A DNA stretch of 64,000 nucleotides from an uncultured Fidelibacterota bacterium (GTDB taxonomy: Bacteria; Fidelibacterota; UBA8477; JABMPR01), in contig CALBFA010000101.1 of assembly GCA_937888365.1 (NCBI GenBank), positions 54,035 through 118,034 on the forward strand, in the 5' to 3' direction. Shown one piece after another: positions 3,708 to 55,039 of this stretch (positions within the stretch are counted from its first letter, which is position 1; the number at the start of each line of letters is the position of its first letter). A model generated the notes under the pieces. It worked only from the letters and a program-made list of their open reading frames with translations. It did no database searches and was not told where the DNA came from. A program made the translations under genes and the position numbers.

Positions 3708-6700
3708 TTGGAACTTTTTTTGATGAAAGGTCATTTTAGAATAGTGAAAATACTTAATATATTCTTCTTCCTTGTAACAATCGGATTTGCGACGGAAATT
3801 CATAATATTTTTGAAAATTCTCATTCCTTTAATTTTTCAATTGATATTCCTGAACCCAGCAAATCTTATCTTGACATAAATACAAATAACGAAATTGTCC
3901 CACATTGGTCAGATGTAAGTTGGGCTGTTTTCAATGATAATCACATATTGCCGTATTTTACAATTCCTATTGTTCTGCCTTCTATTAACGCAGATATTGA
4001 TATTCAATTTGTAATAAAATCAATGGACGATTTTCAATTTCAGGAACCGCACATTTTAGATATCCATAAAGAAAGTTTAGAGCATATTGATCTGAGTTCT
4101 CAAATACAAGTACAAATGGGAAATCGAGGCTACGCGAATAATATTCCCATTGGAACGATTGTAATTATCCCAACAGTGGAGAATAGACAAGCCATACAAT
4201 CTCTCGACATCACAATTGATTTCAAGGGTGTAATGAAAGGCAATAATCAATTATCTTTGCCACCATTCATCAATTCGAACCAAGCGAAAAATTGGGATAT
4301 TGAGACGTTTCATTTTATGTCATCCCTTCACAAAACGACAGATATTCCTGGAAGATGGTTTCGATTTAATGTGACAAATGGCGGCATTTTTAAAATTACG
4401 CCGAATTCATTTCCTTCAGGTACCAATCTGACGGACCCTGGCAGTTGGGAATTATATACACCCTCTTTCCAAGGAAGAGAGATGCCTCTGATTCTCCTCG
4501 ACGATTCTGCTGAACCCGATAATTTGAGCCAAATGAGCATGGATGGCCTCGGTGTAAGTGATGGTGTTTTTTCAGGAAATGACTATTTCCGATTCTATGC
4601 TCGGGGCATCAATGGAGAGATCGAAAATAATTTTCAGACACATTCTTATGCAAACTCTATGACCTACTGGCTCTTTTTACCCGATGACGAAACAACTATT
4701 GGGAATCGCATTCAAAGTATTCAATCTTTAAATATTGTTGCCGACGAAACAATTTCCACAATGACATCAGCGTATTATCATGAGAATGAAATTAATAATA
4801 TCCTGCACTCCGGAAAATCTTGGGTAGGTGAACAATTTAACGGTCCATCAGACAATTTATATTTCTATTTAGATTTACCCGTTGTTACGTCCTCAGGGAC
4901 TTGCACCATTAGCGCAAAATTAAATGGTACACTTGATTATACGACGAGTTATGTACACTATTTTGATGTCATTGTTAACAACATTGACCTTCACGCATCT
5001 CAAAATACACGAAGCAATACGGCGAATATCATGTTGTCTTCAACTGGTAATTTATTTCAAAAGGGTGGTAATACGCTTCAGTTTAAATATCAGTCATCAA
5101 GTTCGGCCGCTGCATATTTAGATTGGTTTAAAATAACTTATCCACGTGAAATCGAGTCCAGTAACGAACCTATATATGGATGGCTCACACTGAATGCTAA
5201 TTCAACTCAACTATCTGCCTTAGCATTATCATCAAACTGGCATTTTTGGGATTTTAATAATTATCTAGATCCTGAAGCACTTGTCTTTACAGGCAATAAT
5301 TTTAAGACTCAAAAACAAGGTAACGTACATTTATTGGGTTTTGCTGATGGGATGGAAGATGCTATTAGTCTCGAACTAGTTGATATCGACTTTAATAGAC
5401 TTCGAAATCCAAGTAATGAAGGCCAATATGTCATTATTTCTCCCGAAACGTTTATAAGTCAAGCAGAACGGCTAGCTGACATCCATGAAAATAAAGTTCG
5501 TTTGGATGAACAACTCAAGTGTTATACAGCCTCAATTTCAGATATCTATAATGAATTTTCTGGAGGCGTTGATGATCCAGGTGCAATTAAATATTTTCTG
5601 AGTTATGCTTTAAGAAACTGGGCAATTAAGCCTGAATACGTTGTTTTACTTGGTGATGCCGATTTTGATTACCGAAATTTGACGGGGCTTTCGCAGTTGC
5701 GAATTCCTACCATTCAAGTTGATGGATTAACTGAAATAAACAGTTATTCATCCGATGATTTTTTTACTCATTTGATTGGAAATGATGTTTTACCCGATAT
5801 TGCCTTAGGAAGAATTCCCGCTAAAAACGCAAGTAAACTTAATGTTTTTCTCGATAAACTAGAGCAATATTGTGTCAATAGCCCCGAGGGTTTGTGGCGC
5901 AATACTATCACCTTAGTTGCAGACGATCCCCTTAGACCAAGAGAGTATTTTGAAAGTTATCACATCGACGATACTGAAGATTTGGCTGATCAATTGCCCA
6001 AATCATTGCAAGTCAATAAAGTTTATTTGACAGAATATCCCGAGGTTCAAGACCCTACCTCACCGTATGTTCTGAAACCAGCCGCTAGAGATGCTTTGCT
6101 CCAACGTATTTATAATGGAACCGCCATCGTTAATTATATGGGACACGGTTCTCCTTGGGTTTGGGCACAGGAAGAAGTCTTTACAGAAAGTGATTTGTCA
6201 AACCTAAGGACTCATGGACAATGGCCACTTTTTTGTGCAGGAACATGTGATTGGGGTAAATATGATGACGTTGCTAGCCAGTCCATGGCTGAACACTTAT
6301 TACTGCTTGAAAATGAAGGTGGCATTGGTGTCATTGCATCAACTCGAAAATCTTTCGGTGGTTCAAACGCAGCATTATTCTCTAAATTCTACACATATTT
6401 ATTCCCCAATAATAATTCCTCTTATTCTATCCCAATTGGAAAAGCCATGCAATTAACAAAAATTGCCAGAAGCAGCGGCGGAGCGAGTCCTAATGATCTA
6501 AAATATGTCATTCTATCGGATCCAGCTCTTCGAATCCCGACGCCAAAATATTCGAGTGACTTCACTCAAATTAACCCCTTGAAACCGTCAGCAATGGAAA
6601 CATTTTCTTATGAGGGACAAGCTCCTAGCGATTTAATGAATGACGGATTTGCTTTGGTAACGGCATTTGATTCTCCAAGGCGCGTTACGCGACATATTGA

Positions 6701-40403: not shown

Positions 40404-40826
40404 CTATTCATTGTCAAAACCAAAACCAGAGAATCTTCCAGTTTCAGTATCAAATATAATTTCGTTACCAGCGCCTTGTTTCATTTCTTCAGTACTTGTA
40501 GCCGTAATTTGACTAGGGGGATTTTCGCCACCACCACCAACAAGAACAAATGTCCAAGATTTTTTCGTCGCTCTGTTTATTTGCAAATAGCGGGGTTCCA
40601 GTTGTGCTTCGACATCTTCAGGATAGGTACCCATATCTTGATAATACATTTGTGATGCATTCATGATGGCGCCAATTGTGGCTTGAGCTTCTGAGGCATA
40701 GGCACTTTTTACGTATTGTTGATAAATTGGGAAAGCAACTGCAGCCAATACAGCTACAATTATAACGACGACAAGGACTTCGATAAGTGTGAAGCCTTTA
40801 TTGTTGCTTCTGAGTGTGTGTTTCAT
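40404..40826 (-). CDS. pilA: Type IV major pilin PilA-like
   Basis: KG-FTLIEVLVVVIIVAVLAAVAFP prepilin leader with Glu5. 140 aa. GAGGAG Shine-Dalgarno site. Confidence 0.8.
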   Translation of the reverse strand: MKHTLRSNNKGFTLIEVLVVVIIVAVLAAVAFPIYQQYVKSAYASEAQATIGAIMNASQMYYQDMGTYPEDVEAQLEPRYLQINRATKKSWTFVLVGGGGENPPSQITATSTEEMKQGAGNEIIFDTETGRFSGFGFDNE

Positions 40827-40965
40827 TTTTTCTCCTCAAATAATTTAATATCTATTGTTGCTCCATTGTGGGCACAAAGTAAACGTCTCCTCCTTGCTGC
40901 CAATAGCTTAAAGATTTTTCGAGATAAAGAAATTATAACAAAACGTCAAACAATCTAACATTTAG
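40827..40965 (-). promoter_or_regulatory. Promoter/5'UTR module, copy A: extended -10 (TGTTATAAT) plus a conserved ~100-nt leader upstream of pilA
   Basis: Minus-strand TTGTTATAAT lies at plus coordinates 40932-40941. The conserved leader is ~85% identical to 43005-43145. Confidence 0.5.
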
Positions 40966-41127
40966 CTCAACGGTAAATGTAATAAAAGTCACTTCGATTA
41001 GTGGAATCAAGCAAAGACGGATTTTTAGCCCTACATTAATCCTTGAATTCTCACATATTCAGTGGAAATAATTAAAGGCATCAGCATTTTTACAGAGGAT
41101 TAAGCAAATGAGAAAGATGGAATAATG

Positions 41128-41154
41128 AAAAAAAGCCCCATATGATAATGAGGC
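41128..41154 (-). terminator. Rho-independent terminator after the GLUG-repeat gene
   Basis: On the minus strand, hairpin GCCTCAT-TATCAT-ATGGGGC with one G-U pair, followed by T7. Confidence 0.55.
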
Positions 41155-41183
41155 CTGATAATCTTTTATTAATGCTACAAATA

Positions 41184-43004
41184 TTACTTAATTAATGCAA
41201 TCTCTCGTGTTTGTACATTATTACCCATGCGAATACTTAAGAAGTAGAGACCCGAGCTTAAATTCGCTGTGTTAACGATATGGCTATATTCGCCTGGACT
41301 CATTTCTTGGTCAAAAATAAGTTGAACTTGTCGACCCGTAATGTCATAAATAGACGCTGTAACAAGCATCGTTTCATTGAGTGTAAATGGAAGTGTAAAC
41401 GCTGCGTTGAAAGGGTTTGGATAGGTATGACCCAATGCAAATTCCTTACTTACAAACGTTTGGTCGATAGGTAATGTATTATCGGCACCTGATTGCCAAG
41501 ATAAAATCATATAACCATCATTCACCGTAGCAAGCTGATCAGCATCCCAATAATTATTAGTGCCATTGGCCGTTTCGCTTACAAAATCCCATCCAGCCGC
41601 AAGAAATGTCAAATAATCTTTCATTTCAGCTGTTGTTTTTCCTGTACCGCCGTCACTTGTCATCTTACCTGATGTCTCAACATCCCAGAAAGAATAACGC
41701 GTCGTTGTGGTTGAAAAATTACTACCACCAACGAGACCACCTACGCGAGAACTTTGCCCACTGACAGCGCCAGTACTATAGCAATAATTTATATTTGATG
41801 ATGTATAATGACGCCCGATAAAGCCGCCTACATAGTCGTTTCCTGTTACAGAACCTGTGCTGTAGGAATTATTGACCGTTGAATATGAATTATATCCGAC
41901 TAAACCGCCGATATTATTGCCACCGGCAACAACATTGCCGCTGTTAAATGATTTGCTTGTTGTAGAAGCTGAACTATAGCCGATAAGTCCACCTACAAAG
42001 TTCATCCCGGTTACATTACGTGAACTTGAACAATTCGAAAGATCCCCACCGCCTTCACTATTACCGACGAGTCCCCCTATATAATCACCACCGACTAGGA
42101 TTCCTGAACTTGAGCAAGCAGTTAAAGTACCATTATTATCATTGAGACCCACAATACCACCGACATAATTACTATTACCTGTTACAGTATTGTTGCTGTA
42201 ACTATTTTGAATCGTTGAGCCAGAATAGTTGAGTCCTACTAAACCACCCACATAATCACCACTTCCTAATACTGAGCCACTCGCATGCGAATAACTAATG
42301 ACGGATGAATAACTGTTGTCACCCGCTAGCCCACCAATATAACGACCGCTTCCGTTAACATACCCCGAGCTCAACGAACTATTTATAGTGGATGATGAAT
42401 TATAACCAACCAGTCCTCCGATATAGTCATTCCCGAGGATCACTCCATAGCAATGAGAATGATCGATTGTCGATGAAGCATAATTTCGACCCACCAATCC
42501 ACCAACATAATTATGCCCCGTAACGTTGATGTTCATGAGTACGACATCCTCAATTGTTGCACCACTTAAATATCCAAAAAAACCAACGAAATTGCTTGAA
42601 GCTCTATTAATTGTCACGTCTAGAATGGTATCGTTTTGCCCGTAATAGAAACCTGTAAAAAGGGTACTGCCGTTTCCTAGGGGCGCAAATCCCTCATTCA
42701 ATCCAGTATCTGTTGCATCATTAGGATCATTATATTTATCATTATCACTATTGTCATCAATGTCATCCCAAAATTGAGTAATCGATGCATCGATAGTCCC
42801 CGATTGTTTATATGCTTTATCCCAAGCACTTGGATTTTGAGTAAGCCAGCTTAAATGGCCCATTGTCGAGATTATGTATGGATTGCTGACCGCATCATAT
42901 GCTGAATTTACATCTTCTAAAGATGGTTGAACCGCAATAACTTGCGCTTGAACGAGGTTCGATAAGCTCATAATTAAAATCAATAACAGAATCATTCTTT
43001 TCAT
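41184..43004 (-). CDS. GLUG-motif beta-helical repeat protein with a T9SS C-terminal sorting domain
   Basis: Signal peptide MKRMILLLILIMSLSNLVQA. About ten ~19-aa repeats of the Y-[IV]-G-G-L-[VA]-G form. The C-terminal YPNPFNAAFTLPF...GLYFLSIRMG is a type A T9SS C-terminal domain. Confidence 0.65.
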   Translation of the reverse strand: MKRMILLLILIMSLSNLVQAQVIAVQPSLEDVNSAYDAVSNPYIISTMGHLSWLTQNPSAWDKAYKQSGTIDASITQFWDDIDDNSDNDKYNDPNDATDTGLNEGFAPLGNGSTLFTGFYYGQNDTILDVTINRASSNFVGFFGYLSGATIEDVVLMNINVTGHNYVGGLVGRNYASSTIDHSHCYGVILGNDYIGGLVGYNSSSTINSSLSSGYVNGSGRYIGGLAGDNSYSSVISYSHASGSVLGSGDYVGGLVGLNYSGSTIQNSYSNNTVTGNSNYVGGIVGLNDNNGTLTACSSSGILVGGDYIGGLVGNSEGGGDLSNCSSSRNVTGMNFVGGLIGYSSASTTSKSFNSGNVVAGGNNIGGLVGYNSYSTVNNSYSTGSVTGNDYVGGFIGRHYTSSNINYCYSTGAVSGQSSRVGGLVGGSNFSTTTTRYSFWDVETSGKMTSDGGTGKTTAEMKDYLTFLAAGWDFVSETANGTNNYWDADQLATVNDGYMILSWQSGADNTLPIDQTFVSKEFALGHTYPNPFNAAFTLPFTLNETMLVTASIYDITGRQVQLIFDQEMSPGEYSHIVNTANLSSGLYFLSIRMGNNVQTREIALIK

Positions 43005-43145
43005 GTTTGTTCCTCAAATAATTTAATATCTATTGCACTTCATTGTGGGCACAAAGTAAACGACTCCTCGTTGCTGCCAATATCTTTAAGATTTTTTGAG
43101 ATAAAGAAATTATAACAAAATATCTGACCATTTAGCATTGAGCTT
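43005..43145 (-). promoter_or_regulatory. Promoter/5'UTR module, copy B: extended -10 plus the conserved leader upstream of the GLUG gene
   Basis: Minus-strand TGTTATAAT lies at plus coordinates 43109-43117. Near-identical to copy A. Confidence 0.5.
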
Positions 43146-43373
43146 TATAATAGATGTAACTCAAATCACGCAAATACGCGAACAATAGTATCTCAATTTA
43201 CATTTTTCATAATCAATTCTATTGTATAAAAGGACTTCAACGAAATCAATATTTTTGTAAATATAAGGTAGCTTGTCTAGTCTTGCAGAATGCGTTTTTA
43301 ACTTTATGTTTGCGGGCAATGCAAAGGCAAACTCCTAAAGCAAAATCATTCGTCACTATTGACCGTTTAAACC

Positions 43374-52779: not shown

Positions 52780-52923
52780 GGCGGTGCAATGATGGAAGCT
52801 CGTGAAAATCGAGCACAGTCGCGCTACTGTAACCGAGGACAAACTCAACAAAGGCCACTATGATACGATGGGAAGGCGTTGAGATTTGGTTGATTCGGGA
52901 GTCAGGATACTTCATTACCGCCC
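52780..52923 (+). ncRNA. Candidate cobalamin (AdoCbl) riboswitch upstream of a TonB-dependent receptor
   Basis: Ordered conserved elements: GGTG-cAA near the 5' end, the hairpin GCTCG-TGAAAAT-CGAGC, CGCGCTACTGTAAC (consensus CCCGCCACTGTAA), GCCACT, GGGAAGGC, and the B12-box-like GAGTCAGGATAC. Closed by the 5' GGCGGT and 3' ACCGCC. Position matches the classic btuB-type arrangement. Confidence 0.55.
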
Positions 52924-53227: not shown

Positions 53228-55039
53228 GTGCTTATTCAAAATTTCAATTATCAAATCTGGCGTTTAAATTTCGATGTCATTAGGCTTAATGATATTACGG
53301 TGGATGCAGACTATCAGCAGCAGGAATTACGAAGTCCGAAATACCTGATTTCAAATCATGACGAACCTGTTTCAATCCGATCCTCGACTTTTTTTAAGCA
53401 ATTACCTGGCGTAACGATTAAACGCTATGGTGGACCTGCAGGCATTAGTCAAATAAGCTCAGACGGCGGCTCAGCTTCTCAAACCAAGATTCTTCTGAAC
53501 GGCTTTGATTTGACATCCGCTCAAAATGGTAGCACGGATATTTCCCAATTACCGCCTCAACTTTTTAATACAATTTCTTTTGATTTAAGCCAAAGACAAA
53601 AACAATCTGGTATGAGTGATGGCGTAATCGGCATCCAAACTGATTTTGATAAACGATATATTTCTATGACGGCTGGGAGCTTTGGTGAAAGGCAAATCTC
53701 TGGCGCATGGAATTTGAATACCGAAAATAAAAAGCTCTTTTTTGCGGGAGGACACTCAGAATATGAGGGAAATTATCCTTCGATTTGGCGAGATATTGAG
53801 ACATCAAGACGAAATAATAACTTTAGGCAGGATTACGTTTTTTCCCAAGGGCAACTCCTTATTCCAAACCTCGCCTATTTACGCATCATTGGCCTAGAAT
53901 CGCAACAAAATCGAGGTGTAGCAGGACAATCATGGAATCCCGATACGGTTTCCAGGCGCTCTGATAAATTATCCCTGTTGGGATTTCAATCAGCAATGAT
54001 GTTTAAAAAGGGCAGCCTTTTTGGGCAACTCATGCGACGGAGTTCGGAAGAATATTTTGATCAAAAGTTGGGTATGCTAATTCGCCACTACCAACACAAT
54101 AGTGAAACAAACCTTATTCATCTCCGAGGGTCAATTGAGTATAATGCTATTAAATTTATTGCATCGAGAGAAGATCGCTTTGAATCGTTATCGTCGGACG
54201 CCGTAGAGAATAATGTCCATCGTCGCATTACTCAAATGACGGCGAATCTAATAGTTTCTCTTGCTTTAGGGTTTCGTGGAACGGCAAATATTCATTCCCA
54301 TCAAGAAAACTTAAAATCTCAACTTACACATTATGGCTATTCAATATCCTGGGAATCAAAGCTCCCCTATTTGCCCGAAATTTTTCTAAGTCAAGAGTCG
54401 TATTACCGCATCCCAACACTAAACGACCTGTACTGGCAACCAGGCGGTAATCCTGCCCTATTGGCAGAGACAACACAGTCACACCTGGCTTCATTAAATT
54501 GGATATTTCCCTCTACTCATTTTCGAATTTTGGCTTATGGAAAAATCAGCCAAAATTTAATTCAATGGATGCCGCAAAACGCCTATTGGCGACCCGTCAA
54601 TATTCTGGAAGCCAAACGCTCCGGTATCAAAGCATCGGGGCATTTTCAAATACATTCAAATTTAGAATTCAACATGCATTACGGATGGCATCATTCAGAA
54701 AGTTTGAGTGGCGATTTTCATAATGGCAAAGCCTTACGATTTGCACCTAATCAAACGGGAATGGGCAATTTCCGGGCATCATGGCATCGCCTAAATGCAA
54801 CATTCCAAGCCGATTACATCGCATCTCGCATCAGTATGTATGGCTACCCTGAAGATATCATTTTGCCTGAAGCGACATTCTATTCCCTTGGAATCGGTAC
54901 AACTTTGCAGCCCATTTCCATCCATCTAAAAATAGATAATATTTCAGATGTTTATTACGAAACAATTTTAGGCTACCCAGAACCACCTCGATCTTTTTCT
55001 ATAAATATTCTCTATAATTTTAGGAACCCTGAAGAATAA
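53228..55039 (+). CDS. TonB-dependent receptor-like outer-membrane protein (BtuB-like by context). The N-terminus probably extends upstream: the frame is open from 52928.
   Basis: Plug domain (LPGVTIKRYGGPAGISQISSDGGSASQTKILLNGFDL) and a beta-barrel. Upstream, in the same frame, lie a carboxypeptidase-regulatory-like domain (SGQIVDANNNGISFVQIQ...NGYFSVSG) and a hydrophobic signal-like segment, with no canonical start codon. Confidence 0.6.
   Translation: MLIQNFNYQIWRLNFDVIRLNDITVDADYQQQELRSPKYLISNHDEPVSIRSSTFFKQLPGVTIKRYGGPAGISQISSDGGSASQTKILLNGFDLTSAQNGSTDISQLPPQLFNTISFDLSQRQKQSGMSDGVIGIQTDFDKRYISMTAGSFGERQISGAWNLNTENKKLFFAGGHSEYEGNYPSIWRDIETSRRNNNFRQDYVFSQGQLLIPNLAYLRIIGLESQQNRGVAGQSWNPDTVSRRSDKLSLLGFQSAMMFKKGSLFGQLMRRSSEEYFDQKLGMLIRHYQHNSETNLIHLRGSIEYNAIKFIASREDRFESLSSDAVENNVHRRITQMTANLIVSLALGFRGTANIHSHQENLKSQLTHYGYSISWESKLPYLPEIFLSQESYYRIPTLNDLYWQPGGNPALLAETTQSHLASLNWIFPSTHFRILAYGKISQNLIQWMPQNAYWRPVNILEAKRSGIKASGHFQIHSNLEFNMHYGWHHSESLSGDFHNGKALRFAPNQTGMGNFRASWHRLNATFQADYIASRISMYGYPEDIILPEATFYSLGIGTTLQPISIHLKIDNISDVYYETILGYPEPPRSFSINILYNFRNPEE

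Follow-up and report, generated by a model that had tools for sequence, protein, structure and literature searches.

The DNA analyzed here is a 64-kb stretch (64,000 nt, called the window in the following) of contig CALBFA010000101.1 from an uncultured Fidelibacterota bacterium. The organism belongs to Candidatus (Neo)Marinimicrobiota (SAR406) and is known from aquatic metagenomes. The stretch carries two copies of a module composed of a promoter-like element and a leader of about 100 nt. One copy is found upstream of a type IV (major-type) pilin gene, the other upstream of a gene coding for a GLUG-repeat protein which is a predicted cargo of the type IX secretion system (T9SS). Of the two, the pilin copy is the ancestral one; the other is a duplicate confined to this species and placed on a lineage-specific gene. 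The reading we prefer, to which we give a probability of about 0.72, is that the native expression cassette of the pilin has been captured by the GLUG gene so that the pilin and an adhesin-like protein would be co-expressed. Positions are numbered along the whole stretch, and the minus strand is the coding strand for both copies and for all features described below unless a plus is given.

A preliminary description of this DNA had placed a repeat with an identity of about 85% at 40827-40965 and 43005-43145, and this placement was borne out by a repeat search, by blastn and by segment-wise alignment. The two copies extend over 40827-40991 (-) and 43005-43169 (-), each abutting the ATG of a gene. 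The repeat search aligned 40861-40992 with 43038-43169 at 82% identity and 40821-40857 with 42999-43035 at 92%, and blastn of copy against copy gave 87.4% identity across 135 nt. The copies were then compared by segment-wise global alignment with numbering relative to the ATG. The identity was at a background of 36% from -260 to -166, 64% from -165 to -121 (Fisher p = 0.002 versus the 36% background), 90% from -120 to -81, 92% from -80 to -41, 85% with one gap from -40 to -1, and 37% from +1 to +30, where the common part is ATGAAA only. Across -120 to -1 the copies are 89% identical, with a background of about 36% on both flanks. Since the identity falls to background beyond -165 and past the ATG, the module is about 165 nt long, and its 3' boundary falls precisely on the start codon. 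The original delimitation was right in letting the module begin at the ATG of both genes; it reaches to about -165 and not to -140.

The 21-mer TTGTTATAATTTCTTTATCTC, which contains the promoter-like TGTTATAAT, occurs exactly 2 times in the window, and any match at all was found in 0 of 100 shuffles. An nhmmer profile of the module returned the 2 copies and no others in the 64-kb window at E <= 10, and before the other genes of the window the promoter block had 25 loose matches, with 26.6 expected. Both copies with the same spacing are present in four assemblies (L001-L004, from ENA, JGI and two Logan runs), which rules out an assembly artefact as the origin of the two-copy arrangement. The module shows no differences among the sampled strains. 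With two paralogous copies, defined boundaries and one copy at the orthologous ancestral position the repeat is a segmental duplication.

Which copy is the older can be seen from the relatives. The pilin orthologs, 60-75% identical, are found in a Marinimicrobia synteny of an Amidase_3 gene, a variable slot, the pilin, pilT, minor pilins and pilM. A single module, equally far from the ATG, is present at the pilin orthologs of L006, L008, L009/L027, L013, L014, L021, L029, L036, L037, L041, L044, L153, L155, L156 and L158, and the nhmmer profile gave one copy in each relative locus. The parts of the orthologous modules are TGTTATnnT, TTCTTTAT, a distance of 98-110 nt from the -10 to the ATG, a GC-rich motif around -50, an A/U-rich tract and AGGAG. 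A scan for the promoter block with the degenerate pattern TTYTGTTATMRTTTCTTTATYYY, in which each species was represented by one genome from a representative-genome collection without the present species, gave a single match in each of nine Neomarinimicrobiota genomes, in every case about 107 nt before the ATG of the pilin; a further 28 matches fell in unrelated AT-rich taxa. Searching the relatives, as the preliminary description had proposed, has in this way led to one copy per genome, upstream of the pilin. Two features had been named as fatal to the original proposal, a similarity confined to Shine-Dalgarno or AT-rich DNA and a module located before housekeeping genes, and neither was found. 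Only in this species is the slot before the pilin occupied by the GLUG gene, which is absent from it in the relatives. As the orthologous module stands at the pilin genes of the relatives and the GLUG gene is lineage-specific, the copy at the pilin is the original one, and that at the GLUG gene is a duplicate specific to this species. Two further scans returned only chance matches: a metagenome scan with TTTTGTTATAATTTCTTTAT, which is too AT-rich, gave 106 stretches with blastn matches only to the seed of 20-28 nt, in a collection that seems to lack this species, and a scan of viral contigs was made with TTTGTGCCCACAATG.

The interval from the Amidase_3 gene to the pilin promoter (40991-43373 in the window; the slot in L006-L009, L153, L157 and L158) is a lineage-variable hotspot. 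Elsewhere it is occupied by a GIY-YIG gene, a xanthine/uracil permease, a permease together with a 1036-amino acid SBBP/FlgD_ig protein, a tRNA, an alpha/beta hydrolase, or by nothing. Two independent contigs, L155 and L005, start 126 nt and 313 nt upstream of the pilin ATG, respectively. These contig ends could be repeat-induced assembly breaks or reflect strain variation in the upstream slot, and for L155 one possibility is that there is a second leader copy in that lineage too.

The strength of the constraint on the leader was estimated in clade B, by which we mean 11 closely alignable relative lineages. Pairs within this clade are 75-97% identical in the leader (-100 to -1) and 25-55% identical at the four-fold synonymous sites of pilT, which is near saturation, and the DNA beyond -140 is essentially unalignable (identity 0.1-0.5). 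The four-fold sites of the adjoining, strongly conserved N-terminus of the pilin are 62% identical when pooled, which is also lower than the leader. With an identity exceeding that of synonymous sites, the leader is seen to be subject to purifying selection on its sequence. The two window copies differ at 13 of 119 positions in promoter and leader versus 16 of 45 in the distal duplicated part (Fisher p = 4.9e-4), and the Jukes-Cantor distances are 0.12 and 0.48, about a four-fold difference. As the distal part has diverged more than the promoter and leader, the functional part of the GLUG copy has been preserved by selection or by gene conversion.

An extended -10 element about 105 nt before each ATG had been pointed out at the outset, and TGTTATAAT is indeed found in both copies, at 40932-40940 for the pilin and at 43109-43117 for the GLUG gene, with 105 and 104 nt, respectively, from the -10 hexamer to the ATG. 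The element has TGn directly 5' of a TATAAT-like hexamer, in the orthologs as well, and thereby agrees in sequence with the extended -10 of sigma-70 promoters. TGTTATnnT followed by TTCTTTAT is kept in 16 lineages; the extended -10 of the relatives reads TGTTAT(CAT/AGT/GAT) in 13 of them, and L155, L156 and L158 have GTTATAnnT variants. Transcription would start about 7 nt downstream of TGTTATAAT. The upstream segment of the pilin module, from about -115 to -165 (40941-40991) and with the -35 and spacer region, belongs to the less conserved distal part of the duplication; its counterpart in the GLUG module (about -115 to -165; 43118-43169) was delimited by the repeat search and the segment alignment.

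Two other promoter assignments were considered and rejected. A sigma-54 (-24/-12) promoter would have GG-N10-GC (TGGCAC-N5-TTGC spacing), and no conserved sequence of this kind was seen by inspection of the aligned leaders; TTGC is present inside the GC-rich motif, with variable letters, never GG, 12 nt farther upstream. The TATAAT at -29, which could be a second, proximal promoter, is limited to clade B and not kept across lineages. Clade B also has a near-perfect palindrome, TGTGAYATATRTCA (TGACATATGTCA in L006), which ends 7 nt upstream of the -10 hexamer and covers about -35 to -20. It is seen in L008 at about 5868-5885 and, at 20-35 nt before the -10, also in L021, L006, L027, L153 and others. 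Its form is that of an operator to which a dimeric transcription factor could bind. Its counterparts in the window are the degenerate ATGTTAGATTGTTTGA and ATGCTAAATGGTCAGA (40943-40962 and 43120-43139).

According to the alignments the leader of the pilin gene is 105 nt (40827-40931), the A/U-rich tract included, that of the GLUG gene 104 nt (43005-43108), and the orthologous leaders are 98-110 nt. The Shine-Dalgarno sequence is GAGGAG in the pilin copy (40832-40837) and the slightly weaker GAGGAA in the GLUG copy (43010-43015). The GC-rich motif TTTGTGCCCACAATG is exact in both copies; it is located at 40864-40878 in the pilin copy, some 50 nt ahead of the ATG, and at 43041-43055 in the GLUG copy. 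Both window copies have TTTGTGCCCAC as the motif, and relatives down to 53% pilin identity have TTGCGCCGC, with 7-9 nt kept as primary sequence at about ATG-50 across lineages. Leader peptides and small open reading frames, such as ATG GAG CAA CAA TAG in the pilin copy, were considered and set aside, being by inspection not conserved between the copies or in the relatives.

Two relatives have unusual leaders. L007 (5655-6003, pilin P0014) has the promoter block, the TTTTGCGCCGC motif and the Shine-Dalgarno intact with about 220 extra nt between motif and Shine-Dalgarno, giving a leader of about 320 nt; the insert has a strong GCCTGCC...GGCAGGC hairpin, and the gene caller puts an open reading frame of 83 amino acids there. 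L237 (3860-4003) has a distant Marinimicrobia-like pilin, 49% identical and on a 2.1-Mb contig, with a leader of about 115 nt after a TTGTATAAAT element. This leader is very AT-rich and without the GC-rich motif, and the long-leader architecture is thus older than the motif.

We propose that the module is the pilin's own cassette, which would consist of a sigma-70-type extended -10 promoter, a constrained leader of about 100 nt, an A/U-rich tract and a strong Shine-Dalgarno sequence. In this species a second copy, from about -165 to the ATG, stands directly before the lineage-specific GLUG T9SS cargo gene in the variable slot. The GLUG gene would then be transcribed and translated by pilin-like signals as a monocistronic unit of its own, closed by a separate terminator, and the outcome would be a parallel, high-level production of the pilus subunit and the adhesin-like surface protein. 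Since both genes have the promoter-like element and the long leader in common, shared control naturally suggests itself. Linear recognition sequences are the most likely role for the conserved leader parts, namely the start-proximal block, the GC-rich motif around -50, and the A/U tract with the Shine-Dalgarno. Candidate readers would be the ribosome (protein S1) and a trans-acting factor on the GC-rich motif. Co-regulation through a common leader was the central suggestion of the preliminary description. Shared control is plausible, with the module now seen to be the pilin's own conserved element; the post-transcriptional mechanism that was attached to it goes too far.

Four points weigh against this proposal. 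The promoter and the start site are assigned from sequence, and a simple sigma-70 scan did not list the promoter, because its -35 is poor. The roles of promoter and Shine-Dalgarno alone leave the strong constraint on the leader unexplained. Gene conversion, and not selection on the GLUG copy, could explain the high identity of the copies. Finally, the copy number in this organism is known from the 64-kb window, and further copies elsewhere would make the module part of a regulon.

A first alternative makes the leader a target of a trans-acting post-transcriptional regulator, either CsrA on GGA or a small RNA (sRNA) or RNA-binding protein on the GC-rich motif. In a leader with such a target one would look for GGA motifs, and those described earlier are present in each window copy, in mid-leader and at the Shine-Dalgarno. 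The strings are not, as had been stated, the same in both copies; they are AAGGAGGAGACG and GAGGAG for the pilin, AACGAGGAGTCG and GAGGAA for the GLUG gene. CsrA does control the leader of a filament subunit, that of Bacillus subtilis hag (PMC6529632). The mid-leader GGA string is, however, found in both window copies and L156, and in all 11 clade-B relatives its place is an alignment gap, the Shine-Dalgarno being the one site with GGA in their leaders. With the mid-leader GGA missing from most relatives a two-site CsrA architecture is not the conserved feature, and the CsrA-type target put forward at first is not supported. The GC-rich motif is kept without a fixed pairing partner, as expected of a single-stranded recognition site; it could equally be a site at the DNA level. 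An sRNA or protein site on this motif, with GUGCCCAC or GCGCCGC as the stretches that would pair with an sRNA, is possible. Taken together, we consider regulation of this kind unlikely. That the pilin leader is an undescribed portable post-transcriptional element, read by a dedicated sRNA or RNA-binding protein at the GC-rich motif, we would call fairly unlikely; if true, the leader moved onto a T9SS adhesin-like gene would form a small regulon coupling pilus and surface-protein production.

A different way to account for a long leader is that it is a structured cis-regulatory RNA, a riboswitch or thermosensor, which governs both genes by refolding. The leader has kept its length of 98-110 nt, it is under purifying selection, and its central hairpin shows two single-sequence compensatory changes; moreover, riboswitches precede pilin and adhesin genes in other bacteria, for example the cyclic di-GMP (c-di-GMP) riboswitch at pilA1 of Clostridioides difficile (reviewed in PMC11477304). 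The folding analyses are all negative. Rfam gave no match over the window leaders at the gathering threshold or at E <= 10, nor in five relatives at E <= 1. Compared to dinucleotide shuffles the folding energies of 7 leaders (the 2 window copies and 5 relatives) have z values of -0.75 to +0.66. RNAalifold on 15 leaders gave -0.03 kcal/mol and 0 compensatory pairs; the sole predicted pairing is between the TTCTTTAT block and the Shine-Dalgarno region and is invariant, and the TTCTTTAT block is probably located at or before the transcription start. The best single-sequence fold, imposed on 12 clade-B leaders, has a covariation of 0.126 versus 0.129 for shuffled alignments, with 299 of 500 shuffles reaching it, and 85.0% paired cells versus 84.3%. 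It should be noted that these tests used 12-15 sequences, many of them similar, and that their outcome is a lack of support for a conserved fold and not a proof of its absence.

The GC-rich motif is the most widely kept feature of the leader, and the pairing predicted for it changes with the lineage: the partner is upstream in some and downstream in others, and it is not the same in the two window copies. Having no consistent partner, the motif behaves as a primary-sequence element. The L007 leader tolerates its 220 or so extra nt. Helices picked by eye, i.e., UCUUU.UCC with the Shine-Dalgarno region, UGUAC/GUACA, a central hairpin at the GC motif, and GGYR/YRCC, were rejected as being all invariant or non-compensating. 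A structured form of the post-transcriptional element suggested in the preliminary description is accordingly not supported by folding, RNAalifold, covariation or Rfam. We regard refolding as a quite improbable basis for the control of the two genes, and a folded ligand sensor is unlikely.

It might also be that a recent local rearrangement or gene conversion left the GLUG copy behind as a neutral by-product, with no regulatory significance. The known copies are two and only 2.2 kb apart, and the slot before the pilin is a hotspot of rearrangement whose inserts differ by lineage. Polymorphism is uninformative on this point since the sampled strains are identical over the module. A recent neutral duplication, though, would not yield a distal part at 64% together with a promoter and leader at 89% identity. 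Also against this reading, the GLUG copy stops right at the ATG, has retained the spacing of the Shine-Dalgarno, and has an intact -10, an intact start-proximal block and an intact GC motif. The GLUG open reading frame, furthermore, is unbroken in all assemblies, and we see only a slim chance that the copy is without significance. A mobile or dispersed intergenic repeat (like miniature inverted-repeat transposable elements or repetitive extragenic palindromes) or an assembly artefact, which the contig breaks near the module in L155 (126 nt) and L005 (313 nt) might bring to mind, is effectively refuted by the lack of terminal inverted repeats at the module ends in the repeat search, by the presence of only two copies in the window and one per relative locus, by the single match at the orthologous position in each of nine relative genomes, and by the same structure in four assemblies.

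The capture of the pilin cassette, as we prefer to read the data, is an event of a known type, i.e., capture of a promoter and 5' untranslated region by duplication, and the pilin leader itself is uncharacterised but clearly constrained. As in other cases of promoter capture or duplication of regulatory regions, promoter, leader and Shine-Dalgarno were copied as a block onto the start codon of an unrelated gene while the ancestral copy stayed at the orthologous gene. What differs here is that the copied block carries a leader of about 100 nt which is itself under selection, and that a type IV pilin is joined with a T9SS cargo. The c-di-GMP riboswitches (GEMM-I/II, C. difficile pilA1) likewise provide one leader type for pilin and surface or adhesin genes, but in the present leaders there is no Rfam match, conserved fold or covariation, and the analogy is functional only. 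The CsrA-controlled leader of hag in B. subtilis, with the FliW-CsrA system, is similar in being a long leader of an abundant filament subunit with GGA at the Shine-Dalgarno; here the second GGA site is not kept in relatives. The pilA promoters of Pseudomonas, Myxococcus and Geobacter are sigma-54/PilR-dependent. They resemble the present case in that a conserved control region, located upstream, is dedicated to the major pilin, whereas the conserved element here is TGnTATnnT, of the sigma-70 extended -10 type, with no GG-N10-GC. Nothing was found on the Marinimicrobia pilin leader in the searchable literature.

The pilin gene (40404-40826) codes for 140 amino acids with a Pfam N_methyl match (E = 5.5e-10) and is the first gene in a pilin-pilT-minor pilin-pilMNOPQ cluster. 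The protein, KGFTLIEVLVVV, has the methylation and cleavage motif (G|FTLIE) of type IV pilins followed by a hydrophobic helix. The GLUG gene (41184-43004) codes for 606 amino acids with matches to Pfam Glug (E = 8.8e-31) and Por_Secre_tail (E = 5.1e-12; PF18962, residues 528-601), and the N-terminus MKRMILLLILIMSLSNLVQAQ is like a signal peptide (Sec). With a C-terminal sorting domain and a putative N-terminal signal peptide the protein is a predicted type A T9SS cargo. A close ortholog of the GLUG protein, which could reveal the original leader of the gene, was not found; the best match is 44% identical over 56% of the query and covers part of the repeats. Gene callers differ on the start, giving either 606 amino acids (43002-43004) or 603 (42993-42995); the spacing from Shine-Dalgarno to ATG, which is as in the pilin module, and the common ATGAAA favour the upstream ATG at 43004. 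On the 3' side of the GLUG gene a terminator-like hairpin with a T-run (41133-41156) splits the GLUG unit from the pilin promoter, and with such a hairpin of its own the GLUG gene would form a transcription unit separate from that of the pilin. Elsewhere in the window, at 52794-52910 (+), a cobalamin riboswitch (RF00174; 73.4 bits, E = 3.4e-16) is located upstream of an open reading frame starting at 53228.

Marinimicrobia (SAR406) are an abundant, uncultured ocean lineage, and to our knowledge almost nothing is known about their gene regulation. The present locus offers a clearly delimited pilin promoter and leader, conserved well past the neutral expectation, and with it a natural experiment in which the pilin cassette has been transferred to a second gene. 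The prediction is that GLUG and pilin transcripts start at equivalent positions and co-vary in metatranscriptomes. If the plain reading alone holds, the duplication would be an ordinary but neat case of a surface-protein gene that was newly acquired and then wired to a strong promoter already in place.

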